From the NCBI GenBank assembly GCA_043821285.1, contig JBDRCZ010000043.1:2903-66902 (forward strand): a stretch of 64,000 nt of DNA. Reading direction: 5' to 3'. Positions 2,628-17,268 of this stretch are shown in pieces. A program made the position numbers and the translations under genes. Numbering within the stretch: position 1 is the stretch's first letter; each line of letters opens with the position of its first letter. The stretch is from Candidatus Omnitrophota bacterium (GTDB lineage Bacteria; Omnitrophota; Gorgyraeia; B26-G9; JBDRCZ01). The notes beneath the pieces were generated by a model. That model did no database searches. It was not told where the DNA came from and saw nothing but the letters and a program-made list of their open reading frames with translations.

Positions 2628-3077
2628 ATGACAGTAATAGCGACCAATAAGAAAGCTAAACGTGATTTTCACATACTTGAAGCAATTGAGGCGGGCATAG
2701 AACTACGTGGTACAGAGGTCAAGTCACTTCGACAAAAAAGGGCAAATTTACAGGATAGTTTTGCCAGAGTCGAAGGGAACCAGATTTACCTCTACAATAT
2801 GCATATCAGCCCGTACGAGCAGGGTAATCGTTTTAATGTTGACTCGATAAGGGTAAGAAAATTATTACTGCATAAGAAAGAAATCCAGCGCATAACTGGT
2901 AAAATTGCCGAGCGGGGGCTTACCTTAGTGCCGTTAAGGGTATATTTTAAAAGGGGTTTTGCCAAGATTGAACTGGCCATCGCAAAAGGCAAACGCCTGT
3001 ATGATAAAAGAGAACAACTACGGCGCAAAACAACCGAGCGGGAGATTGAGAGAGCGATTAAGGCGAGAAATAAATAA
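2628..3077 (+). CDS. smpB: SsrA-binding protein SmpB
   Basis: It has the SmpB N-terminus (KKAKRDFHILEAIEAGIELRGTEVKSLR) and a basic C-terminal tail. It lies immediately upstream of the tmRNA gene. Confidence 0.9.
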   Translation: MTVIATNKKAKRDFHILEAIEAGIELRGTEVKSLRQKRANLQDSFARVEGNQIYLYNMHISPYEQGNRFNVDSIRVRKLLLHKKEIQRITGKIAERGLTLVPLRVYFKRGFAKIELAIAKGKRLYDKREQLRRKTTEREIERAIKARNK

Positions 3078-3302: not shown

Positions 3303-3730
3303 GGGGGTGAAAGGTATCGACTTAGGGATATAGGCTTATGTGGCATGCCGAGGTTGTCGGGAGGCCTCGTAAAACACCTGACAAAAAACAAACGCTGAGA
3401 ATATAACTGTTCCAGCAACAGTGGATCAGCTAATTGAGAAGATTGGTACAGGAATTGCCAATCCAATCATGGCTGTTCCATTGGCCGTTGCTGTCTTAAG
3501 ATAAGGCAGCCCGTCAACTTGGCTTTTCCTGTGGGCTAAGGTTGACGTCATTAAGCAGGATAGTTGGGCGCGATTAGCCTTTAGGCGCCGAACGAATCTC
3601 AAAAAGGCTGCCGCATATAAAATCCCGTTTACTGGAGTTTATATGCCTAAGCGAAAACAGCAAACTAAGCATGTAGAAGCATAAGTTACGATCCCCAAGG
3701 ACGCGGGTTCGAATCCCGCCACCTCCACCA
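3303..3730 (+). ncRNA. ssrA: tmRNA (transfer-messenger RNA, ssrA)
   Basis: The 5' GGGGGTG can pair with the 3' CACCTCC just before a terminal ACCA. A tRNA-like T-arm (gcgGGTTCGAATCCcgc) lies at 3703-3719. The gene sits directly downstream of smpB. I could not identify the tag-peptide reading frame. Confidence 0.8.
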
Positions 3731-3733
3731 GAT

Positions 3734-3766
3734 TTTTGCCCGCCAAAGAACGTGGCGGGCAAAAAT
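3734..3766 (+). terminator. Hairpin terminator after ssrA
   Basis: The sequence ttttgcccgcca-aagaacg-tggcgggcaaaa forms a 12-bp GC-rich stem flanked by T and A runs. Confidence 0.55.
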
Positions 3767-4190
3767 CAGAACCCGCGTAAGGCGGGTGATCTAATGTTCA
3801 ATTGTTCAAAAAATAGTTAACATCTTGCCAGTAGTAATTCACTAAGTAATTCGAACCCGAAAAAAGAGTTTTAGGGAAAAAGATTGTTTTTCCCTATTCC
3901 GAATGATACTAATTCGTAAGAGTAACATCGGGATGCCGATGTGATTCTTGTTAGTGTTCCACATTCGGTATCAGCGTACTGGAACAACATTGGCGGAGGG
4001 AAGAAAAATATTAAAAGGAAACTGTCAGAGTTTCCTTTTAAGGAGTGAAACCCAGCCACTGATATTGAGTGTTAGATAAACAAAAAATAAAATATAGTCT
4101 AAATATCACATAGTATAACATCAAGAACAACAACAAGAATATAGTGCATTGGATTGAACAATTATTTGCATTCTAAGAAGGCATTTAACA

Positions 4191-4661
4191 ATGTGGGAAC
4201 TTATTATTGGCGGTATTCTTGCTACGGTGGGAGGTATGGTAAGTATATGGTTTCAGGCAAAGAACGCCAGAAAGATAAGAATGGATGAAATAATTGCTGA
4301 AAAAAAGATAGTTGCAAATAATGAAGCATATATAAGAACCAAGAGGATTGAATCAATGTTAATACAGAGTTATAACATGGAAGATGTTAGAAATAAAATG
4401 CAGGACTATGAAGAGTGGTTTTTTACTAATTGCCTTTTTTTACCACGAGAATTTTCTAATAAATGGTTAACTTTGAAGATTAATGTCTCTAAAGTATGTA
4501 GAATGATGAAAAAGATTCCCTTTGAGGTCGAAAAAATAATAAAATTAGAGGGACAACTCAGTAGATTAGTGCGAGAGGCTAAAGACATAATTTATAAAGA
4601 AATGGGGCTTACAAGAATGAAAGTCGAGAATTTGCCTGAAGAAAACGATATTAACAACTAA
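4191..4661 (+). CDS. Hypothetical membrane-anchored protein (156 aa)
   Basis: The ORF has an N-terminal transmembrane helix (LIIGGILATVGGMVSIW). I recognise no domain. It is the first gene after ssrA. Confidence 0.35.
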   Translation: MWELIIGGILATVGGMVSIWFQAKNARKIRMDEIIAEKKIVANNEAYIRTKRIESMLIQSYNMEDVRNKMQDYEEWFFTNCLFLPREFSNKWLTLKINVSKVCRMMKKIPFEVEKIIKLEGQLSRLVREAKDIIYKEMGLTRMKVENLPEENDINN

Positions 4662-4724
4662 ACGATATAAGTATTATCGAGGGACAACGTTAACTATAGT
4701 AAGACAAATAAACGCGTCCATTAC

Positions 4725-5501
4725 ATGAAAAAGATATTTTTATTAATACTCATAGCAATATTTTTAGCAGGTTGTGCAACGATGCCTTATGTGTATTTAA
4801 GGTCGGATGTTTTTGCTGATTCTAAGACTGTCAGTTCGATATATATCATGCCGGTGGTAATAGAAGTTAAGGTTGATTCACAGTTTAGTATTAAACAAAA
4901 TAAACTGCAGGATTATCTGTATAAAAAAGAAAATATGATTAATGAGTTTGTTGCGTTGGAGTTTGAAAAAAGAGGATATAAAATTGTCCGTCAGAATAAA
5001 AAGTACCGCGAGTTGGATTTAGATAATCAGAATGATAAAATAGTTAAATTGGCTTTGCAGGAATTTTTAGCCTCGCCAACCAAAACCTACAGCGATGATT
5101 TAGATGTTTTTTTAAAAACAATTATTGCCGGAGAAAGGATACTTACTGATAAAGCCGGAAATGAAAAAAAGGTAGATTTTAAAAAAGTGATGGAACAAGA
5201 GGAAAAAAAAGGCGATGAGCCGCTGGTTAAGCAAACTTTAAAAATGAAAGACGTTATTCCGGAATTTATTGATACGGTACTATACATAGAAATTGAAAGT
5301 TTTATTGCTAACCGCGGCCTTTTTAATAGACTTCAGGAAAAAAGTACGGCAACGGTAAAAATGAAGCTTGTTAGTCTCAAAGAAGAAAAGGTGATTTTTT
5401 CTTACGGTGAGGAGCGGCACAAAAGAGATATTTTTCACGGGAAATCGTTTAGAAATGTTTTAATTGATATGCTGGAAAAAATCCCGATTAAAATAAAATA
5501 A
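4725..5501 (+). CDS. Lipoprotein (258 aa)
   Basis: It has a signal peptide with a lipobox (LAGC). An internal 133-bp segment is duplicated at 16268-16400. Confidence 0.55.
   Translation: MKKIFLLILIAIFLAGCATMPYVYLRSDVFADSKTVSSIYIMPVVIEVKVDSQFSIKQNKLQDYLYKKENMINEFVALEFEKRGYKIVRQNKKYRELDLDNQNDKIVKLALQEFLASPTKTYSDDLDVFLKTIIAGERILTDKAGNEKKVDFKKVMEQEEKKGDEPLVKQTLKMKDVIPEFIDTVLYIEIESFIANRGLFNRLQEKSTATVKMKLVSLKEEKVIFSYGEERHKRDIFHGKSFRNVLIDMLEKIPIKIK
5103..5235. repeat. Left copy of a 133-bp direct repeat (about 97 percent identical to 16268-16400)
   Basis: Direct alignment shows 4 mismatches in 133 bp. The repeat is internal to the lipoprotein gene. Confidence 0.85.
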
Positions 5502-5650
5502 ATATCACGCAAAGCCGCAGAGCACACAGAGAAAGAAATAAGCACGTACAGGGCATGTAGAGCAGGAAGATATAAATTAAAAGAAAGTTTGGAGCGGTAT
5601 TTTCCACAAGGTCATCTACGTAAAAAATGGGAGATGTTAGAAATTAGAAT

Positions 5651-6154
5651 ATGATACTACAATATCTGTTCATAGCACTTAGAGGAAATAATCCTTTTAC
5701 AATAATTAAAGCTCAACAATTGTTTGCAAAATATGGGTGTAAAGTTAGCCTTAATAAGTTAGAAGCGCACTATATTGTATCGAAAGAAACGAACTCGTGG
5801 GATGAATTTATAGATGCTGCAAAAATAATTTTCGAACGGGACGAGCAAATGAATTTTGAAAAGTTATGTGCTTTACATATGGCCGGTCATATTACTAAAA
5901 TAAAAAATGGGAAGAGATTGGATGAGATCGAAAAAGAAATAGCTATAAGATACGAACAGGAAATTAGAGAAAAGGGGCTTGAAGGGTATAATAAAACGAA
6001 GGTTCAGAAATTAATAAAGTGGGCACTAAAATTGATGATGAAAAATAAAGAAAAACAGGTAAAAATAGAAGAGGCAATCAAGAGGTATTCTTTGTCTGAA
6101 ATAGATGTTGCCTATATAAAAGAATATTATGGTCATATTTTTGAGAAAGAATAG
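5651..6154 (+). CDS. Hypothetical protein (167 aa), first gene of the XRE-RadC-hsdRMS string
   Basis: A complete ORF in the same orientation and immediately upstream of the HTH gene. I recognise no motif. Confidence 0.35.
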   Translation: MILQYLFIALRGNNPFTIIKAQQLFAKYGCKVSLNKLEAHYIVSKETNSWDEFIDAAKIIFERDEQMNFEKLCALHMAGHITKIKNGKRLDEIEKEIAIRYEQEIREKGLEGYNKTKVQKLIKWALKLMMKNKEKQVKIEEAIKRYSLSEIDVAYIKEYYGHIFEKE

Positions 6155-6184
6155 CCGGGGCAAGAGAAAAGTGGAGAAAAAAAT

Positions 6185-6376
6185 ATGCTCTCAGCAAATA
6201 TTAAAAAACTAAGAAAAAACACGCTATCCCATGAGCAACTTGCCCAGAAAGCCGGAATAACCTGCAGCACTCTTATCAAAATTGAATCCGGTCAAAACAA
6301 AAACCCGACCCTTGAAACAATCACAAAAATCGTAAATGCTTTTGGGGTTAAGATATATGAATTGGTGGGCGAATGA
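6185..6376 (+). CDS. XRE-family helix-turn-helix transcriptional regulator (63 aa)
   Basis: It has a Cro/C1-type HTH (LSHEQLAQKAGITCSTLIKIESGQNKNPTLETITKI). Its stop codon overlaps the radC start codon. Confidence 0.7.
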   Translation: MLSANIKKLRKNTLSHEQLAQKAGITCSTLIKIESGQNKNPTLETITKIVNAFGVKIYELVGE

Positions 6377-7095
6377 TCAGTTCTCAGAAAAGTACGAGCG
6401 CTATTCCTACATGGCCGGAAGAAGATAGGCCAAGAGAAAAGTTATTAAAAAATGGTGAACATACGCTAAGTGATTCTGAACTATTGGCGATTCTTTTAAG
6501 AACCGGCACAAAAGGACAAAGTGCAATAGATTTAGCAAGAAAAATATTACATAAGTTTAAGTCATTTCGCAAGATGAGCCATACTGATAAGAGAGAATGG
6601 ACTGAATTTAAGGGGTTGGGCATGGCAAAAATTGCTCAACTAAGAGCGGCTCTGGAAATTGCCCGCCGTTTTAACTATTATGAGAATAACAGTGTTAAAA
6701 AACCAATGTTACAATATACCGAAGAAGTGGTAGATATGTTTAAAGCAAGAATGAGGGATCTCAAATATGAAGTTTTTAAAGTAATCTTATGTGATACTAA
6801 AAACAGGATTCTCGATGTTGTTGAAATTGCGCAGGGTACTCCCGTGGAATCTTACCCAATAATACGAGAAATAATTTCAAAGGCATTACAAAGTTTTGCT
6901 GCCGGGATTATTTGCGTGCATAATCATCCACAGGGAGAGCCAGAACCAAGTAAAGACGACGAACTTTTTACAACCCAACTAAGGCAAACCTGTAAGCCAA
7001 TGGGAATCAGGCTGCTTGACCATATAATATTTGGCACCGATGAATTTTATAGTTTTGATAAAAACTGCTCTAATAGGTATAGTAAAATATGTTAA
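6373..7095 (+). CDS. radC: RadC-like JAB/MPN domain protein (UPF0758)
   Basis: It has the N-terminal helix-hairpin-helix region (SDSELLAILLRTGTKGQSAIDLA) and the JAMM motif HNHPQGEPEPSKDD. It overlaps the hsdR start codon. Confidence 0.85.
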   Translation: MISSQKSTSAIPTWPEEDRPREKLLKNGEHTLSDSELLAILLRTGTKGQSAIDLARKILHKFKSFRKMSHTDKREWTEFKGLGMAKIAQLRAALEIARRFNYYENNSVKKPMLQYTEEVVDMFKARMRDLKYEVFKVILCDTKNRILDVVEIAQGTPVESYPIIREIISKALQSFAAGIICVHNHPQGEPEPSKDDELFTTQLRQTCKPMGIRLLDHIIFGTDEFYSFDKNCSNRYSKIC

Positions 7096-9887
7096 GTGAA
7101 AATTTATCAGAACATCAAACCAGAAAAAAGATAATTGACGGTTTGTTAGAGTCTGCGGATTGGCATTTAAACAATAAAGCTGAAGTAGTAGAGGAGTTTG
7201 AGATAATTGGTGCCAGTGCATCGCAATATAAGATTGCTCAAAAGGAAACGGCATTTAATCCTTCCGGATTTTCAGACTATCTTCTTCTTGACCGCGCCGG
7301 CGAGCCTTTAGCAGTGGTTGAGGCTAAAAAGACATCACGCGATCCTATTGCTGGTAAACAGCAGGCCGAAGATTATGCAGAGGGTATAAAAAAGGCCATT
7401 GGAACAGATCCCTTTATTTTTCTGACTAATGGGTACGAATTATGGTATTGGAATAGACAGTATTATGTTCCATCAATGGTGCATGGGTTCTTTACGCGGC
7501 ACGACCTGGAGCGTTTACGATACCAAAATCAGTTCAAAAAAGATCCGCATTCTATTTCTATTAAACCATCGATTATAGATAGAGATTATCAAATTGAAGC
7601 GGTAAAACGTGTCTTTGACGGTCTTATTAAAAATAGGCGAAAATTTTTGTTAGTTATGGCTACCGGGACCGGAAAGACAAGGACCGCTATGGGATTAATA
7701 GATGTGCTTATGCGGGCAGGATGGTGTCAGAGGGTATTGTTTTTAGTAGATAGAGAGGCGCTGGCAATACAAGCCTTTAGCGATGGATTTAAGCAGCATC
7801 TTCCAAATGAATCGCGCTGTTACATAAAAAGTCGTATGGTTGATACATCAAGTCGTCTTTTCGTAGGAACAATACAGACAATGATGGAATGTTTTCATAA
7901 AATTTCACCAGGCTTTTTTGATCTTATCATTGCAGATGAATGCCACCGCTCAATATATAATAAGTGGAAAGACGTATTAAGCTATTTTTATGCGATTCAG
8001 GTTGGCCTCACAGCAACACCTTCAGATTATATCGAGAGAGATACTTTTAAGTTTTTTGATTGTTTTGAAAATGCCCCCACATTTAACTATACATATGATT
8101 GTGCCATACAAAACCGACATTTAGTTGATTTTAGGCCTCCGTATGCTGCCCAGACAAATTTTCAAATAATTGGGATCAAGGCAAGTGAGCTGCCTCCGAG
8201 CATTCAGAAAAAGCTTATTGAAGAAGGATTAACCTTGGAGGACATAAATTTTGAAGGCACAGACTTAGAGAAAAAGGTTACAAACATAGGTACCAATGAA
8301 TCATTAGTAAGAGAGTTCATGGAATTTTGTATTAAAGACGATTCAGGCGTGCTTCCAGGCAAGTCGATTATATTTGCAATTTCACATAACCATGCAAACA
8401 GGCTATGGAAGGTGTTTGACAGGCTTTATCCTGAATACAAGGGGCGGCTTGTTGAAATCATTGATTCGAAAATGGAACGGCCGATGAAACTTTTAGCAAA
8501 ATTTAAAAACGAAAGCTATCCGCGCGTTGCCATTTCTGTAGATATGCTTGATACCGGAGTGGATATTCGTGAAGTTGTCAATCTTGTGTTTGCAAAACCA
8601 GTATTCAGTAAGATTAAATTCTGGCAAATGATCGGCAGGGGGACACGGACATTAGAAAAAGAACTTAATAAAAGAAAGCCGTGGTGTATGCACAAAGACA
8701 AGTTTCTTATTATGGACCACTGGAATAATTTTGAATATTTCGGAGAAAAACCCCAGGGTGAATTACCTCCTGTTCAAGATGCGGTACCGGTTAAGATATT
8801 TAAAATACGCTTGATTAAACTAAAAATTTTCCAAGACAGAAAAGATGACCAACACTTTGAAAAAACAAAAGTTCTTATAATAAAAGATATAAAAGATTTA
8901 CCCGAAAATTCCATTACCGTGAGGGAAAATAAGCGCAATATCGACAAAGCCTTGTCAGGCCAAATATGGAAAGACCTTGACAGAAAATCATTAGAATTTT
9001 TAGAAAAGATGATCGCTCCGCTTATGAGGTTTAAAAGCGATTTCAATCTCTATGAAGCGCAATTTATTCTAAAAACTGAAAAAACCAGCCTTGCGGTATT
9101 GCAGTCTAACGCAGAAGAGATAAAACGGAACAAAGAGGCAATTATCAATGACATCAAACTGCTCCCGAGGAATTTAAGCGCGGTTAGAGCAAAAGAAGAA
9201 TGCATGAATAAGATATTATCTGAAAAATTCTGGGAGGATACAACAATAGAAAAATGTGACTATATCAGAGAAAATCTAAGTGCGATAATGAGACATAAAT
9301 TACTGGAGGAACGAGAGGTAGTTAAGCTGGATTTAGATGACTTAATAGCTGAAAGACGATGGATTGCATTTGGGCCGGAAGGCGAAGGCGATTATGTCGA
9401 AAACTACAAAGAGAAGGTTGAAAAGAAGGTTTTAAGCATAGTAGAGTCGCATCCGGCGTTAAATAAGATAAAAAACGATATCCCAATCACTGAAAAGGAC
9501 CTGGCAGATTTAGAAGATACGTTAAACAGCCCTAAATTATACATTACTGAAGAAAATCTACGCAAGACCTACCGTCAACCCTATGGCACATTTATACAAT
9601 TTTTAAAGTTTATTCTGGGGAAATATAAGTTTCCTAATCCGGAGGACATGATCAATGAATCCTTTAACACTTACGTTATAGAACGCAATAACACCAACAC
9701 GCTGTCAAGCGAGCAGATAAGGTTCTTAAGGACAGTCAAAAACGTATTTGCCCAAAAAAAACATATAGAATTTGAAGATCTATTTGAGCCGCCGTTTACG
9801 CAGTTTGGTGCAGATGCGGCGACACGGCTTTTTTCTGAAGAAGAATTGCAAGAAGTTATAGAAATATTTAATAGTATAAAAATTTAG
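7089..9887 (+). CDS. hsdR: Type I restriction enzyme R subunit (HsdR)
   Basis: The N-terminal PD-(D/E)xK nuclease is present (DYLLLD...VVEAKK). It has helicase motif I (MATGTGKT) and motif II (IIADECHRS) followed by a long C-terminal region. hsdM and hsdS follow. Confidence 0.9.
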   Translation: MLSENLSEHQTRKKIIDGLLESADWHLNNKAEVVEEFEIIGASASQYKIAQKETAFNPSGFSDYLLLDRAGEPLAVVEAKKTSRDPIAGKQQAEDYAEGIKKAIGTDPFIFLTNGYELWYWNRQYYVPSMVHGFFTRHDLERLRYQNQFKKDPHSISIKPSIIDRDYQIEAVKRVFDGLIKNRRKFLLVMATGTGKTRTAMGLIDVLMRAGWCQRVLFLVDREALAIQAFSDGFKQHLPNESRCYIKSRMVDTSSRLFVGTIQTMMECFHKISPGFFDLIIADECHRSIYNKWKDVLSYFYAIQVGLTATPSDYIERDTFKFFDCFENAPTFNYTYDCAIQNRHLVDFRPPYAAQTNFQIIGIKASELPPSIQKKLIEEGLTLEDINFEGTDLEKKVTNIGTNESLVREFMEFCIKDDSGVLPGKSIIFAISHNHANRLWKVFDRLYPEYKGRLVEIIDSKMERPMKLLAKFKNESYPRVAISVDMLDTGVDIREVVNLVFAKPVFSKIKFWQMIGRGTRTLEKELNKRKPWCMHKDKFLIMDHWNNFEYFGEKPQGELPPVQDAVPVKIFKIRLIKLKIFQDRKDDQHFEKTKVLIIKDIKDLPENSITVRENKRNIDKALSGQIWKDLDRKSLEFLEKMIAPLMRFKSDFNLYEAQFILKTEKTSLAVLQSNAEEIKRNKEAIINDIKLLPRNLSAVRAKEECMNKILSEKFWEDTTIEKCDYIRENLSAIMRHKLLEEREVVKLDLDDLIAERRWIAFGPEGEGDYVENYKEKVEKKVLSIVESHPALNKIKNDIPITEKDLADLEDTLNSPKLYITEENLRKTYRQPYGTFIQFLKFILGKYKFPNPEDMINESFNTYVIERNNTNTLSSEQIRFLRTVKNVFAQKKHIEFEDLFEPPFTQFGADAATRLFSEEELQEVIEIFNSIKI

Positions 9888-10109
9888 GAGTTTATATGAA
9901 ATCATTCTATGTTTTATCATTATACAACCGTCAGGTCTGGATTTTGGAAGAAAATGGAAAATGCGATTGTTGAAAAAAGCCCGATGGTACAAAGATCGTA
10001 AGATTTAAACCGGTACCAGCTAAAGACACCCCTGTTTTTATGAAAGCAACAATAGAACTTTATAATGACGGTATAAAGGAAAACAAACTGAACAAAAGCA
10101 GGTATACTA

Positions 10110-10150
10110 ATCTATAAAGTAGGTATTATATTAATAAAATTACCTACTTT
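10110..10150. promoter_or_regulatory. A 9-bp perfect inverted repeat (aagtaggta...tacctactt) in the hsdR-hsdM spacer
   Basis: The hairpin or operator is visible in the sequence and sits 15 nt upstream of the hsdM start. Confidence 0.35.
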
Positions 10151-10164
10151 ATGAGGGGATTAAA

Positions 10165-11670
10165 ATGCTTAAATCCTATCCAGAAATAAAGAGTAAAATA
10201 GACAAACTTTGGGATATGTTCTATTCGGGAGGCATGTCTAATCCTCTGGTTGCAATTGAGCAAATATCCTATCTTATTTATATGAAAAGACTTGAGGATA
10301 TGGACAATCAACAGAGAAAAGCAGCCGAAAGAAGAGGGCAAAAATACACTTCTATATTTAAAGGTAAAGAACACTGCTGTTGGTCCCACTGGATGCACTT
10401 TGATGCAGAGCGCATGCTAAAGACTGTAAGAGAAGAAGTTTTTCAATTCATCAAAGAGTTAAAAGGAGAAGGTAGTTTTTACGCAGAATCAATGAAGGAC
10501 GCGGTGTTTCTTATCCCAAAGGCATCCCTTATTCAGGAGGCGGTTAAGATAATAGATGACATAAATCTGTCTGCCAAAGGCATAGACCTTCAGGGTGATA
10601 TTTACGAATATTTATTGAGTGAAATATCACAATCCGGCAAAAACGGACAATTCCGCACGCCCAGGCATATTATTAGAATGATTGTCGAGCTTGTAGATCC
10701 TAAATTGGGTAACAAAATTTGTGACCCGGCCTGCGGTACCGGCGGCTTTTTAATCGGCGCGTATAATCATATCTTAAAAGAAAATACGGATCCGGAAAAC
10801 ATAGAATGCGATGAAGACGGCGCCCCGCATAATTTAACCGGAGATAAAATTATAGAAAAAAAACACTGGAAATTTTTGTGGGAAAAATCTTTTTATGGAT
10901 ATGATTTTGATACCACCATGGTGCGTATTGGCTTAATGAATATGATCCTTCACGGCATCGCCAATCCCCTTATAAGATATGCTGATACTTTATCCAAGAG
11001 CTTCCAAGAAAGAGAGCTTTACGATATTATCCTTGCTAATCCGCCTTTTAAAGGAAGTGTTGACAGAAGCGATGTTGCCGAGGATTTAAGCGTTGTTGGA
11101 AAAAGTAAAAAACCAAAAACAGAACTTTTATTTCTTAATCTCTTTGTGAATATGCTCATCCCAGGGGGCCGGTGCGGGGTTATTGTCCCTGATGGCGTAC
11201 TTTTCGGCTCAAGCAACGCCCACCTTGACACAAGGAAGCTGATTTTAGAGAAATGCGGCTTAGAAGCAATAATTTCAATGCCATCAGGCGTATTTAAGCC
11301 CTATGCCGGGGTTTCAACCGCGATACTCGTATTTACCAAAGGCGAAAGAACCGATAAAGTCTGGTATTACGATATGGAAGCGGATGGCTATTCATTAGAT
11401 GATAAACGTGCCAAAATAGAAAAGAATGATATACCGGATATTATTGAAAAATGGAATTCTCGTAACAAAAATAAAGAACCAAAGAAAGGCGAGAAATGGC
11501 TGTGGGTGAATTATGATGAAATAAAGAAGAATAATTATGATTTATCAATTTCTCGCTACAAGCCGATTGAGTATGAGGAAATAGAATACGAAAAGCCGGA
11601 AACACTAATTACTAAAATTGAGAACCTCGAAAAAGAAATATTAACGGATTTGAGCAGGATTAATTTATAG
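10165..11670 (+). CDS. hsdM: Type I R-M N6-adenine DNA methyltransferase (HsdM)
   Basis: It has the HsdM N-terminal domain, a SAM-binding motif (DPACGTGGFL) and the catalytic NPPF motif (LANPPFKGS). Confidence 0.9.
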   Translation: MLKSYPEIKSKIDKLWDMFYSGGMSNPLVAIEQISYLIYMKRLEDMDNQQRKAAERRGQKYTSIFKGKEHCCWSHWMHFDAERMLKTVREEVFQFIKELKGEGSFYAESMKDAVFLIPKASLIQEAVKIIDDINLSAKGIDLQGDIYEYLLSEISQSGKNGQFRTPRHIIRMIVELVDPKLGNKICDPACGTGGFLIGAYNHILKENTDPENIECDEDGAPHNLTGDKIIEKKHWKFLWEKSFYGYDFDTTMVRIGLMNMILHGIANPLIRYADTLSKSFQERELYDIILANPPFKGSVDRSDVAEDLSVVGKSKKPKTELLFLNLFVNMLIPGGRCGVIVPDGVLFGSSNAHLDTRKLILEKCGLEAIISMPSGVFKPYAGVSTAILVFTKGERTDKVWYYDMEADGYSLDDKRAKIEKNDIPDIIEKWNSRNKNKEPKKGEKWLWVNYDEIKKNNYDLSISRYKPIEYEEIEYEKPETLITKIENLEKEILTDLSRINL

Positions 11671-11674
11671 GATT

Positions 11675-12877
11675 ATGATTAGCATATTACAAAACGCAAC
11701 AATAGAAAGTCTATTATCTGAAACTATAACTGGCGAGTGGGGCATTATGTCTACTGGTGAAACAGGTGTAAAAGTAATTAGAACCACTAACTTTACAAAC
11801 GAAGGCAAGTTGAATCTTGATAATGTAGCCATACGAGATATTCCCCAGGATATAATTAACAGGAAGAAGCTTCGATATGAAGACATTATCTTAGAAAAGT
11901 CAGGTGGCAGTGATAATTTTTCAGTGGGCAGAGTCATTTATTTTGATTTGAAACCAAAGGAAGAATATTTATGCAATAATTTTACTCAAATTTTGCGAAT
12001 AGATAGCAAGAAAGCATACTCTAAATACGTATTTTATTATCTATTTTATCAACACAAGATTGGTGTTGTAAAAAATTTTCAAAATAAAACTACTGGAATA
12101 CGAAATTTACAAACTAAGCGATATTTAGCTCAAAAGATTCCAACCCCCTCAATTGATGTACAGCGCAAAATTGCCTCTATTCTCGACAAATGCGAATCCG
12201 CACGCGCAAAACGTAAAGAGGCAAGTCGTCTTACTGATGAATTCCTCAGGTCTGTGTTTTTTGATATGTTCGGGGATCCGGTGGGAAATACAAGGCAATG
12301 GGCTGTTGATAAAGTAAAAAATATTTGTTCTGCAGAAAGCGGAGGAACGCCGTCAACTAAAAAGAAGAAATATTGGGAAAAAGGAAAAATCCCTTGGCTT
12401 GGGTCTACATGTTGCAAGAATAATTTTGTAAGAGAAAGTAAGTCATATATAACCAAGGAAGGACTTGAGAATTCTTCTGCAAAAATATTCAAAAAGAAAA
12501 CCGTAATTGTTGCGTTGGTTGGTGCCACAATCGGAAAAACAGGCTTTTTGGAATTTGATTCAACCACCAATCAAAATATAGCAGGTTTATATCCTTTAAA
12601 AGACGATAGAATCATACCGGAGTATCTTTTTTTTACAATACAGTTTTTATACCCGCATTTTTTAGCATTAAGTAGGAGCGGGTTCAAAATGGCAAATCTA
12701 GCTTTTATCCGCAATTTAAGTATACCGCTACCTCCGAAAGAAATACAAAAAAAATTCGCCGGCATTGTCCAAAAAGTCGAGCAGTTAAAACAAAAACAAA
12801 GAGAATCCGAAAGAGAATTAAACAACCTTTTTAATTCTTTAATGCAAAAAGCTTTTAAAGGGGAGTTGGTTGGATAA
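11675..12877 (+). CDS. hsdS: Type I R-M specificity subunit (HsdS)
   Basis: It has two target-recognition domains separated by conserved coiled-coil regions, and it lies directly after hsdM. Confidence 0.85.
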   Translation: MISILQNATIESLLSETITGEWGIMSTGETGVKVIRTTNFTNEGKLNLDNVAIRDIPQDIINRKKLRYEDIILEKSGGSDNFSVGRVIYFDLKPKEEYLCNNFTQILRIDSKKAYSKYVFYYLFYQHKIGVVKNFQNKTTGIRNLQTKRYLAQKIPTPSIDVQRKIASILDKCESARAKRKEASRLTDEFLRSVFFDMFGDPVGNTRQWAVDKVKNICSAESGGTPSTKKKKYWEKGKIPWLGSTCCKNNFVRESKSYITKEGLENSSAKIFKKKTVIVALVGATIGKTGFLEFDSTTNQNIAGLYPLKDDRIIPEYLFFTIQFLYPHFLALSRSGFKMANLAFIRNLSIPLPPKEIQKKFAGIVQKVEQLKQKQRESERELNNLFNSLMQKAFKGELVG

Positions 12878-12887
12878 AACTTCAGGC

Positions 12888-12927
12888 CAGTCTCAACTTG
12901 ACAACAGCTGTAACAACAGCAGATTAA
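12888..12927. repeat. Left copy of a 40-bp perfect direct repeat (cagtctcaacttgacaacagctgtaacaacagcagatta); similarity extends to about 55 bp
   Basis: It is identical to 14529-14568 and starts 10 nt after the hsdS stop codon. It contains the palindromic core ACAGCTGT. Confidence 0.85.
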
Positions 12928-12931
12928 ATAA

Positions 12932-13162
12932 ATATCGTGTCCCCGGAATTACAAGATTGAAACTCCCATTGGTACATATAATCCAGATTGGGCTATTTTG
13001 AAAGAAAACGGTAAAATTGTTTATATGATTAGGGAGACTAAATCCACCAAAGAACAGCTCAAATTAAGACTGCCAGAGGTAGATAATATCCACTGCGGAC
13101 GTCAGCATTTCTTGGCCATAGGAGTGGATTATGATGTGGCGACAACGGTTGAGGAGCTATAA
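12932..13162 (+). pseudogene. C-terminal remnant of a restriction endonuclease with a PD-ExK nuclease motif (type III Res-like)
   Basis: The 76-codon frame has no start codon. It translates to ...PIGTYNPDWAILKENGKIVYMIRETKS..., which is a PD...ExK motif of the kind found at the C-terminus of type III Res subunits. Confidence 0.5.
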
Positions 13163-13209
13163 ACCTATGACGCAGATAAGAAAAAGGGGATGCTTTTCGG
13201 AAAAGCTGT

Positions 13210-13818
13210 TTGAAAATGCAAGAAAACGATAAATATAAAAAGGCAATAGAGAGAAATTTATTTGAAATCACACATGCTTTGCTTGAGTATAAAGCATTAG
13301 CTGCTTTTGACAAATATCGTATTAACAAACATGTTGCTACAAAAGGGGAAAATTTTTTTACAATCTCTTTTAGAGCGCTACATAACGATATGATAGCGCA
13401 TGCGATCAAAGTACTGGATAAAAATGTAGATAGTGCAACCTTTTGGCACATCTTCGATAAAGATACAAAAACAATAGAAGAGTTAGAAAATTTTTCGCAG
13501 GAGAAATTGAAAATTTTAAATGATTTGGCGGAAAAATTAAAAATTCTTCGGGACAAGACACATTTTCATATAGACAAAAATGGTGTTTTGGAGCCAGATA
13601 AGGTTTGGGAAAGAGCTGATATAAAAGGAAAAGACTTAGGCGAGGGGTTAGTTTTTTTATTTTCTATATTGAATGAATTATATCGAAAAGTTTTTGGTAA
13701 AGAATTCCTATTCAGACTTGAAGATTATGACGAAAAAGATTTGGGTAAGTTACTAGATATTGCCGGATCAAATGAGCTTATCGAAGTTGTTCCAAGGGTG
13801 GGGATACCCCATGATTAA
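13210..13818 (+). CDS. Hypothetical protein with a possible HEPN-like Rx4-6H motif (202 aa)
   Basis: The sequence LRDKTHFHID fits the Rx4-6H pattern, and the protein is alpha-helical and charged. This is weak motif-level evidence only. Confidence 0.3.
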   Translation: MKMQENDKYKKAIERNLFEITHALLEYKALAAFDKYRINKHVATKGENFFTISFRALHNDMIAHAIKVLDKNVDSATFWHIFDKDTKTIEELENFSQEKLKILNDLAEKLKILRDKTHFHIDKNGVLEPDKVWERADIKGKDLGEGLVFLFSILNELYRKVFGKEFLFRLEDYDEKDLGKLLDIAGSNELIEVVPRVGIPHD

Positions 13819-13936
13819 CCTTGTTTTTATACAGGGGATAAATCATCAATGTAATTGCTAAAGAGCAAAGCAAAAGAACAGCTTAAATAAAATATAGTGA
13901 TGAAAACACCAAAAATTTTTACCCTATGGAGGCAAT

Positions 13937-14497
13937 ATGAATCTTCATGCTTGGCAGATGGCATGCCAATATATTATAGTACTGGGCGTTGTAATATCAG
14001 CGATAGGAAGTTTTGGATCGTTCTATTTCGGGAAAAAAATTGAACAAACGAAAGATAAAGAAATAACAACAAAAGAAGCAGAATTTAAAGACAAGCTTAC
14101 TATTCTTATAAAAGGTAACGAAGTAATACAAAATCACCTTAAAACAGCATACAAGGAATTAACAGACCAGCAAAAAGAGAAGCTTGTTTTAATGCTTGCA
14201 GTTGCAAAAGAGAAAAATATAACAATCAACGCAGTTTTGGGAGGACAAGGATCTTTCGAACTTGCAAATAGGTTGAAAACAGTTTTTATAGACGCAGGAT
14301 GGAATGTAAATGGGGTAAATCAGTCAGTATATAATGTGCCATTTGTTGGATTATTTGTGTCCATACCAGAGGGGCCTACCCCAGAAGAAGCTAACGTTAT
14401 TTATCGTGGTTTTAAGACGATCGGTTATGAAGTGAAGGGGAACAGGGATGCAAACCAACAAAATCGTTTAGCGTTAATTGTTGGCTCAAAACTATAA
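13937..14497 (+). CDS. Hypothetical membrane-anchored protein (186 aa)
   Basis: It has an N-terminal transmembrane helix followed by a coiled-coil-like region. It is paired with the preceding ORF inside the repeat-bracketed cassette. Confidence 0.3.
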   Translation: MNLHAWQMACQYIIVLGVVISAIGSFGSFYFGKKIEQTKDKEITTKEAEFKDKLTILIKGNEVIQNHLKTAYKELTDQQKEKLVLMLAVAKEKNITINAVLGGQGSFELANRLKTVFIDAGWNVNGVNQSVYNVPFVGLFVSIPEGPTPEEANVIYRGFKTIGYEVKGNRDANQQNRLALIVGSKL

Positions 14498-14528
14498 AAT
14501 AGCCCAAATATTATAATAAGCATCGGGG

Positions 14529-14568
14529 CAAGTCTCAACTTGACAACAGCTGTAACAACAGCAGATTA
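14529..14568. repeat. Right copy of the 40-bp perfect direct repeat
   Basis: It is identical to 12888-12927. Confidence 0.85.
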
Positions 14569-14698
14569 ATAATTAAGTATTGTGTCCACAGACTAACAGA
14601 CTAAAAAATACCCTTGCAATTTGAATGAAAAAGTTATACAATTCATAATATATAATACCATATTTAGGATAGGATTGGTTATAAAAGGAGAATAAAAT

Positions 14699-15442
14699 AT
14701 GCCAAGTAGAATAGAGCATTTTTTTAGTAAGTCAAAAGTACAGCAGTTTATTGTGCAGTTTGCTTGCCGAGTACCGATTCGTAAGACACTTAATAAGGGA
14801 GAAAAAACAGCATTAGAAAATGTATTGAGAGATTTAGATAGTACGAATTTTCAACTCTTTGATGAACAATTACAGAATAATCCTCCGTATTTGTTTCAGG
14901 TTCTTCATCAGCTTCCAGTAGGAGCTGCTTCAATCACATTGCCTTCTTTTGTTTTTTCTAACGACAGTTTTTCTTTTATTTTTCCAATTAAAATGTCTAG
15001 CAATATTATCTCAGGAATTGGCTCGATCGATACTAGTGATATGAATTTAAAAATAATTGATTGGGTACTTAAAGTGCAAGATATTATTAGCAATTTACAC
15101 TGTCAACGTGCTGGAAAAATATTTGATTTAGTTTTGGGGCCATTTAATCAAGAAGAAAAACTGCAGATATTTAATGAATTGTTTTCTATGAAGCTTACTA
15201 ATATTGGTGAGCTTAATCTAACTTTTGCTGATTATCGTACATCTGGGCCAGATCTTTTTAATATACAAACAAATATTCGTTATTTACAAGCAAAATTAGA
15301 TGAAAGTTTTTTTATTAATACTCGTGTTGATATTAATAACAGACAGCTTTTTAATTCAATGGAGCCTCCCAATATTAAAAAAGTTTGGGAATTTGCAGAT
15401 TCGATAATAGATGAGCATTTTAAAAACATACTTATTTTATAA
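14699..15442 (+). CDS. Hypothetical protein (247 aa)
   Basis: A complete ORF preceded by an RBS (aaaggag). I recognise no motif. Confidence 0.35.
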   Translation: MPSRIEHFFSKSKVQQFIVQFACRVPIRKTLNKGEKTALENVLRDLDSTNFQLFDEQLQNNPPYLFQVLHQLPVGAASITLPSFVFSNDSFSFIFPIKMSSNIISGIGSIDTSDMNLKIIDWVLKVQDIISNLHCQRAGKIFDLVLGPFNQEEKLQIFNELFSMKLTNIGELNLTFADYRTSGPDLFNIQTNIRYLQAKLDESFFINTRVDINNRQLFNSMEPPNIKKVWEFADSIIDEHFKNILIL

Positions 15443-15468
15443 AAATTTTTTAATAAGGAATTAAGATA

Positions 15469-15873
15469 ATGATTAATTTTGTTTTCCCTAATTTTTGCAC
15501 AGAAGAAGAGATAACTAAGAAACAGATAAACAAAACAACTACGACGGTTTCAGTAATGTCGATAGGTGGCATATATACTACTAAAACCAACACACTAGCA
15601 GATGAAACAGCATTGAGAAGTGTGCTTATTACAAAAAATCCGAATATATGTCAAGGGAAACCGATAATTCTTGGTACACGTATTTCAGTTTCAAATATTG
15701 TAGAATTGCATTATTTGTTAAACTGGAATATTCAAAAGATTCGTGATGAATATCCACACTTGAGTAATGAACAAATAATTGCTGCACTTGAGTATTATGA
15801 AAACCACACAAAAGAGATAGATTCTTATTTGCAAGAAGAAAAAGAGATAAATGCCGCATATAGAGATACCTAA
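15469..15873 (+). CDS. DUF433-family protein (putative antitoxin-like)
   Basis: Its C-terminal region (CQGKPIILGTRISVSNIVELH...EQIIAALEYY) resembles DUF433. It overlaps the next gene. Confidence 0.55.
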   Translation: MINFVFPNFCTEEEITKKQINKTTTTVSVMSIGGIYTTKTNTLADETALRSVLITKNPNICQGKPIILGTRISVSNIVELHYLLNWNIQKIRDEYPHLSNEQIIAALEYYENHTKEIDSYLQEEKEINAAYRDT

Positions 15874-16207
15874 ACTCTACCTGAATGAAAATATACCTAT
15901 TCGTTTAGTTAGTTTGTTATCAAACCTTGGAATTATAGCAATACATACCTTAAGTGTAAATAATCAAGGAACTAGTGATGAGTTTCAACTGCAATATGCA
16001 GCAGAAAGAGGCTACATAATAGTAACACATAATAGAAAAAATTTTAGGCAGTTACATAAGAGATGGATCCATGAAGGGAAATGTCACGCTGGTATTATAG
16101 TTATGCGTCATGATGAGCCCGAACGTTTGGCAGATAGAATTAAGCGCTTTTTTGAACAAGATTATTTTAATATTACTTTACCATTTTGCGAATCGCCACC
16201 TGCATGA
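15851..16207 (+). CDS. DUF5615 / Mut7-C-like PIN-fold protein (putative toxin partner of DUF433)
   Basis: Its size and the motifs IRLVSLLSNLGIIAIH and YIIVTHNRKNF resemble that family. The DUF433-DUF5615 gene pairing is known. Confidence 0.5.
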   Translation: MPHIEIPKLYLNENIPIRLVSLLSNLGIIAIHTLSVNNQGTSDEFQLQYAAERGYIIVTHNRKNFRQLHKRWIHEGKCHAGIIVMRHDEPERLADRIKRFFEQDYFNITLPFCESPPA

Positions 16208-16249
16208 ATCAAAAGTTGCCACTGAGAAGTTAAACTTTGGAAAGAATTT

Positions 16250-16400
16250 ATGGATTTTCATAAAAAAGATGTTTTTTTAAAAACAATTATTGCCGGAGAA
16301 ATGATCCTTGCTGATAAAGCCGGAAATGAAAAAAAGGTAGATTTTAAAAAAGTGATGGAACAAGAGGAAAAAAAAGGCGATGAGCCGCTGGTTAGGCAAA
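16250..16400 (+). pseudogene. Duplicated internal fragment of the lipoprotein gene at 4725-5501 (right copy of the 133-bp direct repeat)
   Basis: The 16268-16400 segment is about 97 percent identical to 5103-5235. The reading frame is conserved only across the repeat. Confidence 0.6.
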
Positions 16401-16649
16401 TTGTTTGCGGTAATGTATGGACTGTTTTCGCTTATAGTTATACCATTTATGTTGATTGGAATGTTATTATCACCAGAAAATAGGGGACCCAGGGTAATAT
16501 TTCTTTTATTTATACCTATTTTATATATTATCCTTGGCTTTATTGGCGGTGTCATTGGTGCTTTTGTTTATAATCTTTGTGCTAAATGGGTTGGCGGGAT
16601 TGAATTAGAATTTGAGGAAGAAAAAGAACCACCCATTTCAAATGAATAA
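16380..16649 (+). CDS. Possible small two-helix membrane protein (89 aa)
   Basis: A hydrophobic ORF that starts inside the repeat in a different frame. The evidence is weak. Confidence 0.2.
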   Translation: MSRWLGKLFAVMYGLFSLIVIPFMLIGMLLSPENRGPRVIFLLFIPILYIILGFIGGVIGAFVYNLCAKWVGGIELEFEEEKEPPISNE

Positions 16650-17117
16650 TAGCAGTGATACTATATATGAAGAAACTGGACTCTGAAGGAAAAAAATAAA
16701 AAATAATAAATTATAAAAAAATGCCTTTTACCCCCTTTCATTTTGGCCAGCATGCTTTGGTGGATTTAGCTGTAGCTAAAAGAATAAATGTGCTGGTTTT
16801 TATCATGGCAAATATAATTATTGATATTGAGCCATTGTATGGGTTTGTTTCGTATACAGTGCTTTATAAAATTTGCGGCTTTATGTTTTTATCGGCAATA
16901 GCGCTATATATTTATAAAGCAAAAAATATATAACACCTTGAACCACAAAACTTACGATTTTTAATATAAATCCTTTTCCATTCGTGTTAATTTGTGTTAT
17001 TCGTGGTTGAATATTTTTTAACCTGCCGCATCTACAGTACGAGACTGTCGGGGACAAAGACTTTTCTTGTTTTATCTATGGTGTACAATGAAATAGTACT
17101 ATGACTTAAGCTTTTTC

Positions 17118-17147
17118 TTGTCAAAACCTGCCTTTTAATGTTATAAT
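17118..17147 (+). promoter_or_regulatory. Sigma-70-like promoter (-35 TTGTCA, 18-bp spacer, -10 TATAAT) for the murI-queDC operon
   Basis: The hexamers are read directly from the sequence. Confidence 0.5.
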
Positions 17148-17158
17148 CTTTGCAAACA

Positions 17159-17206
17159 ATTTCAAAATTCGAATATTCAAAGATTCTAAGATTTAAAAAT
17201 TCAAAG
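17159..17206. repeat. Six tandem octamer repeats (ATTYNAAN: atttcaaa attcgaat attcaaag attctaag atttaaaa attcaaag) in the murI leader
   Basis: The repeat is seen directly. It lies between the promoter -10 and the murI start codon. Confidence 0.8.
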
Positions 17207-17268
17207 CGTTTTGTTTGCTGGTTGAGCGGCAGAGAATTTAGAATTTTCGAATGAGGAGTTATATACAA

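Follow-up and report, generated by a model that had tools for sequence, protein, structure and literature searches.

A 1.7-kb segment of foreign DNA appears to have been inserted into a defence island of a Candidatus Omnitrophota genome, between the Type I restriction-modification (R-M) gene hsdS and a gene encoding a 247-aa protein (p247). The segment spans approximately positions 12878 to 14610 of the 64-kb stretch of DNA analysed here (the window), including both copies of a flanking direct repeat, and contains the end of a broken Type III restriction gene (res), a HEPN gene of the AbiU2 family and a gene for a membrane protein. The locus is an ordinary defence-island insertion and represents neither a new capture system nor a new two-gene defence module. 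With moderate confidence, we explain it as a whole by a Type III R-M origin of the insert, arrival through a crossover and a solo defence function of the HEPN protein.

Genomic setting and empty site

The source sequence is a single contig of a Candidatus Omnitrophota metagenome-assembled genome (MAG), of which proteins ABH952_05080, ABH952_05085 and ABH952_05090 are locus entries. All genes of the locus are located on the + strand and the GC content is ca. 35%. A 13-kb variable island (3731-17250) starts right behind the SmpB and tmRNA genes and stops at murI (17251). It contains, in this order, two small membrane or lipoprotein genes, HTH, RadC, hsdR, hsdM, hsdS, the repeat-bracketed cassette, the gene for the 247-aa protein, DUF433 and a DUF5615/PIN-like gene. 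The initial annotation had placed the cassette in a defence island, and the Type I hsdRMS genes on one side and p247-DUF433-DUF5615 on the other bear out a setting rich in defence or toxin-antitoxin genes. The features of the locus are as follows:

2628-3077: SmpB
3303-3730: tmRNA (Rfam, 189 bits)
7089-9887: hsdR, Type I R-M
10165-11670: hsdM, Type I R-M
11675-12877, + strand: hsdS, Type I R-M (two stretches matching PF01420 Methylase_S; PADLOC Specificity_I); proposed left border of the insertion
12885-12927: direct repeat copy 1, 43 nt (perfect block 12889-12927)
12932-13162, + strand: start-less Type III Res C-terminus, 76 codons, PD...ETK motif (PF19778, 1e-19; PADLOC REase_III)
13216-13818, + strand: AbiU2-family HEPN protein, 200 aa from ATG (202 aa from TTG at 13210)
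13937-14497, + strand: 186-aa membrane-anchored protein with a TM helix, a long helix and a C-terminal beta-alpha-beta domain
14527-14569: direct repeat copy 2, 43 nt (perfect block 14531-14569)
14577-14606, + strand: res vestige of ca. 10 codons, VLCPQTNRLK (20/30 ungapped matches; in-frame alignment with ISCPRNYKIE)
14614-14642, + strand: promoter-like TTGCAA-N17-TACAAT of the 247-aa gene, homologous to L091; proposed right border of the insertion
14699-16207, + strand: resident three-gene module outside the cassette (p247, 14699-15442; DUF433, 15469-15873; DUF5615/PIN-like, 15851-16207)

The empty site was found on contig L091, which was reached through homologues of the 247-aa protein and carries an orthologous hsdM-hsdS-p247-DUF433-DUF5615 block whose DNA is collinear with the window (77% and 73% identity). 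The corresponding amino acid identities are 83% for HsdM, 61% for p247 (p248 in L091), 69% for DUF433 and 78% for DUF5615. The target-recognition domains of the two HsdS proteins differ; the conserved C-terminal part aligns up to window position 12860. In L091, the spacer from hsdS to the p248 gene measures 80 nt, is free of repeat and cassette, and carries TTGTAA-N17-TATAAT, homologous to the promoter-like site of the window. Because the L091 block lacks both repeat and cassette, the extra DNA of the window is best interpreted as an insertion. This would include both repeat copies, since one copy should have survived a precise deletion between them, and none is present in L091. The anticipated variable presence of the cassette between hsdS and the 247-aa ORF is borne out by its absence from this block. 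As the window and L091 differ in what flanks the block, hsdMS-p247-DUF433-DUF5615 represents an older linked unit. L091 is the one relative that provides the empty-site evidence and it is a distant one, so that its intergenic DNA could have diverged beyond recognition. Searches with the cassette DNA returned no match in plasmid or phage collections.

Further traces of rearrangement were observed in the island. A 134-nt direct repeat with 97% identity (5102-5235 and 16267-16400) encloses ca. 11 kb comprising HTH, RadC, hsdRMS, the cassette and p247-DUF433-DUF5615. Its copy A is embedded in an intact gene for a 258-aa lipoprotein, and its copy B represents part of a gene of this type, which points to another, larger insertion by recombination in which the cassette would be nested. 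Between hsdR and hsdM, 145 nt (9902-10046) are 72% identical to L091 218-363, located inside a Fic/DOC-family gene upstream of hsdM, and look like a vestige of it; the hsdR of the window has no counterpart on the L091 contig. tmRNA genes are classic integration sites of islands. For the tmRNA in front of the 13-kb island, neither a repeated copy of its 3' end nor an integrase was found. The tag peptide assigned to this tmRNA by ARAGORN (VPATVDQLIEKIGTGIANPIMAVPLAVAVLR) is unusually long and atypical, and its resume codon is probably mis-assigned. On a related Omnitrophota contig (L004/L005), Mem_trans-SmpB is followed by a T2SS ATPase in place of the island.

Anatomy of the direct repeats

The two 43-nt repeat copies differ at a single position (C12888 versus A14530), leaving a perfect block of 39 nt, and are the only copies in the window (up to 3 mismatches allowed; none in 100 shuffles). 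They had initially been described as two perfect 40-bp repeats with a palindromic core, the first one 10 nt behind the hsdS stop codon. Two copies, a position just behind hsdS and a palindromic core (the 8-bp ACAGCTGT) were all recovered, whereas the perfect length is 39 nt, the coordinates of copy 2 were ca. 2 nt off and the distance from the stop codon (12875-12877) is 7 nt for the 43-mer or 11 nt for the perfect block. The left edge of the repeat is sharp, with left flanks matching at 13/30 positions, which is chance level. To the right, homology runs on for ca. 30 nt at lower identity, past a linker of 4 nt versus 7 nt (20/30 ungapped matches, p ca. 3e-4 to 9e-4 with 81 offsets allowed).

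This right-hand part leads into res. The remnant covers positions 35 to 106 of the 108-position PF19778 RE_endonuc profile, matches the C-terminus of PADLOC REase_III and shares 54% identity with the C-terminal end of a full-length Res (K2D) encoded on a Planctomycetes plasmid. It has no start codon and is directly preceded by a stop. The stretch 12932-13162 is thus a pseudogene fragment, not a full-length helicase plus endonuclease Res, and the start-less endonuclease C-terminus with a PD..ExK motif had been recognized correctly. The first ca. 10 res codons (12932-12961) fall in the diverged right part of the repeat, and the encoded ISCPRNYKIE is homologous to VKLPSWFKID of intact Res proteins. 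Since VLCPQTNRLK behind copy 2 is homologous to the start of the remnant, both copies carry the same repeat/res junction, and this junction is older than the repeat duplication. Each repeat is a unit of ca. 80 nt, namely the 43-nt sequence fused to the start of the res fragment, and a duplicated junction describes the two repeats better than a pair of bare recombination sites does. In the res vestige, an exact tandem 8-mer (CAGACTAA, twice, 14588-14603) was additionally observed just upstream of the p247 promoter-like site.

We also considered the 43-nt sequence itself as frameshifted res coding sequence. Its 'LD...N' motif is in register with Res proteins; the idea is unsupported, with an HMM gain of 2.1 bits that was equalled by 56 of 500 shuffles (11%), and the Pfam res alignment does not extend into the 43-nt repeat. 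A terminator scan and an Rfam search with relaxed thresholds returned no terminator or non-coding RNA at the repeats. The 20-nt core gave three chance hits with unrelated flanks in 185,579 GTDB species genomes (one per species) and no match in IMG/VR or JGI metagenomes, ruling out a dispersed or widespread element within these collections. In 516 kb of fetched loci, the best approximate match to the repeat was 24/39, and 27/39 in loci fetched via the core 20-mer. With the core not found in genome, viral and metagenome collections and no plasmid or phage match for the cassette, there is no evidence for a cassette family using this site.

Comparison with known recombination sites

attC sites are imperfect inverted repeats (R''-L''...L'-R') that fold to a hairpin as single-stranded DNA. 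DNA folding of both repeat copies on both strands yielded no significant hairpin (z from -0.3 to -2.7, 5-bp stems only), and inspection of the repeats revealed no RYYYAAC/GTTRRRY pair. Pfam searches of the 0.5-17 kb region, covering all ORFs of at least 110 aa and most shorter ones, returned no IntI integrase and, within the island (3.7-17.2 kb), no recombinase, integrase, resolvase or transposase. Xer/dif-type sites (IMEX, pdif) are 28 bp long and consist of two ca. 11-bp arms with partial dyad symmetry and a 6-8 bp spacer. The arms flanking the palindrome in our repeats are direct sub-repeats rather than inverted ones; with the 8-bp palindrome as their sole dyad, the repeats are not dif-like. 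The proposal of attC-like or Xer-type sites consequently had to be abandoned.

A CIME is an integrase-less element flanked by att-type direct repeats and mobilised in cis by a co-integrated element. The locus shares with CIMEs and Campbell-type integration direct repeats whose core is identical and whose arms differ, the lack of recombination genes and a variably present segment. It differs in that the segment is only 1.6 kb long and is not located at a tRNA, a tmRNA or the 3' end of a conserved gene, while neither a cognate integrase nor a related autonomous element was found in the island and the core did not turn up in the genome, viral or metagenome collections.

Origin of the insert and alternative explanations

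According to the explanation we favour, the insert would be a piece of what was once a Type III R-M neighbourhood, with the last 76 res codons and, 53 nt downstream, the AbiU2 HEPN gene; it also carries the membrane-protein gene. The insert would have arrived by one reciprocal crossover between two diverged ca. 80-nt copies of the repeat unit, a reading based on the mismatch at the left, the 39 identical nucleotides and a right part of only ca. 65% identity. In the simplest form, a 1,642-bp circle with one site would have undergone Campbell-type integration into a resident site; an equivalent unequal exchange would be the alternative form. The crossover may have been RecA-dependent or carried out by a recombinase encoded elsewhere. 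Neither a circular form nor a donor locus nor a second repeat-bearing genome was found, so that the crossover model is built on two sequences. The HEPN protein, judged by its family membership, would function as a stand-alone RNase-type toxin or abortive-infection effector backing the adjacent R-M system, and the 186-aa membrane protein would be a hitch-hiker.

Alternatively, the 39-43-nt repeat could be the core of a dedicated site recognized by a recombinase acting in trans, making the segment a non-autonomous mobile cassette resembling a CIME or an integron cassette. Such a site would be in keeping with an identical core between differing arms, sharp left edges at an identical nucleotide in the two copies and a segment missing from the orthologous L091 block, and the sub-repeats TCTCAAC, TGACAAC and TAACAAC together with the CAGCTG palindrome could bind a protein. 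We nevertheless regard this as unlikely given an island without integrase, resolvase or transposase among its scanned ORFs, repeats lacking an attC-type hairpin, a GTTRRRY/RYYYAAC pair and a dif-like dyad, a core absent from three public collections and homology that enters the res pseudogene fragment, an extension for which a minimal att site would have no need. That the 43-nt repeat is the site of a recombinase shuttling small integrase-less defence cassettes to R-M 3' flanks in Omnitrophota is a very improbable proposition; if true, it would amount to a system for cassette capture that is related to neither integrons nor Xer. In the recombinase-site reading, the AbiU2 HEPN and membrane proteins could act together.

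The locus may also be a scar that formed without a circle, either through tandem duplication of a repeat-res tail-AbiU2-TM186 unit and subsequent loss of most of the second unit, or through one-step illegitimate insertion of donor DNA in which this structure was already present. This would account for the same repeat/res junction in both copies and for the absence of the whole segment, both copies included, from L091. A recent duplication predicts uniform identity, however, while 39/39 matches followed by ca. 65% were observed, and an old duplication would not have kept 39 nt perfect without gene conversion, so that we assign a low probability to this scenario as well. The slightest chance is given to an assembly artefact in which two strain variants were joined at the shared 39-mer in the MAG contig. 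The metagenomic source leaves room for such a join, and the exact AbiU2-like, 186-aa, HsdS and MurI sequences occur in no other assembly on record; an exact look-up of a partial AbiU2 homologue (P0018) likewise found it not on record. Yet a 39-nt repeat is shorter than the usual final assembler k-mers, GC content and gene orientation do not change at the junctions, and the structure, with a res tail and a matching vestige, is internally coherent.

The AbiU2-family HEPN protein

The HEPN gene starts 53 nt behind the res stop codon. Its product had been singled out as a 202-aa ORF with an Rx5H HEPN-like motif that could not be assigned to a family. The motif is indeed present as RDKTHFH (R112-D-K-T-H-F-H118 in the 200-aa protein), and the family can be named: the protein matches PF18734 HEPN_AbiU2 over profile positions 12-177 of 193 with an E value of 4e-6, a borderline match with a score of 26.8 bits at a gathering cut-off of 26.8. 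Precomputed PF18734 assignments are present in 9 of 24 homologues. Across 20 sequences, H116, F117, H118, I119 and D120 never vary, while the conservation of R112 and T115 reaches at least 90%. The 200-aa protein shows the helical-bundle fold of HEPN proteins; Foldseek against the PDB gave no significant match, with the HEPN toxins 7ae2 and 5yep as the best structural matches. It belongs to a divergent, environmental subfamily of ca. 24-90 sequences that are 33-59% identical to it, and no match was found in plasmid collections. By family membership, the protein is a predicted RNase toxin or abortive-infection effector.

The protein resembles the known AbiU2/PF18734 family in its threshold Pfam match, its conserved R[DN]KTHFH and its helical HEPN-like fold, and also in the position of its gene directly downstream of a restriction gene, in a family reported from R-M operons. 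It differs in lacking a Sel1/TPR partner, in not adjoining an AbiU1-type nuclease and in belonging to a divergent environmental subfamily. AbiU2 HEPN genes were described in R-M operons in 2013 (Anantharaman et al. 2013, PMC3710099), so that the initial suggestion of an undescribed anti-phage module is not supported. Solo HEPN integron cassettes are also known, namely Vpc_cass2 (PDB 3jrt) and V. mimicus HNPBCG_15845 with an AbiU2 domain (bioRxiv 10.64898/2026.03.17.712381); in a recent screen described in that preprint, a stand-alone cassette protein with an AbiU2 domain conferred resistance to T4 and T7. In contrast to these cassettes, the repeats of the window are not attC, IntI is missing, and a pseudogene fragment and a second gene are carried. 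In the founding lactococcal AbiU system, AbiUi was protective and the HEPN component AbiUii lowered resistance (PMC13064643). Since the lactococcal HEPN component was not protective, the AbiU2 family name is no proof of a defence role. HEPN-MNT and other HEPN toxin-antitoxin systems (PDB 7ae2, 5yep) share the best structural matches and an Rx4-6H RNase motif, but no MNT or other conserved antitoxin gene adjoins the HEPN gene in the window or in 81 related loci.

The membrane protein and the two-gene module question

The 186-aa protein is N-terminally anchored in the membrane, as first proposed, through a hydrophobic helix, and its AF2 model has a pLDDT of 94.5. A word-index search returned only the protein itself; an orphan status was rejected, as phmmer found 296 relatives. 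The family comprises ca. 300 representatives from environmental MAGs (e.g. Latescibacter, Scalindua), annotated as hypothetical throughout. Its members combine an N-terminal motif like MSPExLQT and a TM helix with a coiled coil and a small alpha/beta C-terminal domain of the pattern GD.EA..FA..LK..F..AGW.V.GVNQ. The N-terminus weakly resembles PHROG holin profiles (E 4e-4). There was no defence match for the family in PADLOC or Pfam and no match for the protein in plasmid or phage collections. The protein resembles neither the genes that follow AbiU2 homologues nor the other TM protein of the island.

The HEPN and 186-aa genes are adjacent, on the same strand, 118 nt apart and part of one inserted segment, and the holin-like N-terminus would, weakly, fit a functional two-gene abortive-infection module as the initial annotation had envisaged. 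We consider such a module very unlikely. In a set of 87 loci with AbiU2-subfamily genes, searched with tblastn and the family profile HMM, no relative of the 186-aa protein was detected (0/87). In 81 loci, the genes immediately next to the HEPN gene are essentially all different; they form 91 distinct clusters that fall into 90 homology groups, with no Pfam family recurring among them more than twice (TPR, DUF5677). The missing defence match of the 186-aa family likewise argues against the module. With nearly all neighbours different, the AbiU2 subfamily behaves as a solo gene in variable contexts, and the 186-aa protein is probably a passenger and no conserved HEPN partner. Type I R-M genes were not detected in the AbiU2-subfamily loci. 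DUF5677 and TPR each account for 2 of the 91 distinct neighbours, one being located at L004 2420-3286 among the loci, and the TPR neighbours echo the Sel1/TPR association with AbiU2 reported in 2013.

The resident p247-DUF433-DUF5615 module

The 247-aa protein has no Pfam family and 31 non-self homologues with 41-65% identity. DUF433 follows p247 in all six independent contexts (the window, L091, L092/93, L095/96, L097/98 and L099-101), and DUF5615 follows in all of them apart from contig L095, where none was called while its sibling L096 has one. These contexts adjoin Type I R-M, a Type III-like Mtase-TIR-ResIII cluster, PemK toxin-antitoxin genes and others. p247-DUF433-DUF5615 has the appearance of a conserved three-gene module of a toxin-antitoxin or defence-like type. 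No paper with both terms DUF433 and DUF5615 was returned by a full-text literature search.

Conclusions

In conclusion, the locus provides a clean, small example of defence-island growth by nested insertion, in which a fragment of one R-M locus and its linked HEPN gene were apparently inserted between a second R-M system and a module resembling toxin-antitoxin systems. The locus also contributes a divergent environmental subfamily of AbiU2-type HEPN proteins with solo-gene behaviour. The more useful leads are two unnamed conserved families, p247 as the partner of DUF433-DUF5615 and the 186-aa membrane protein.
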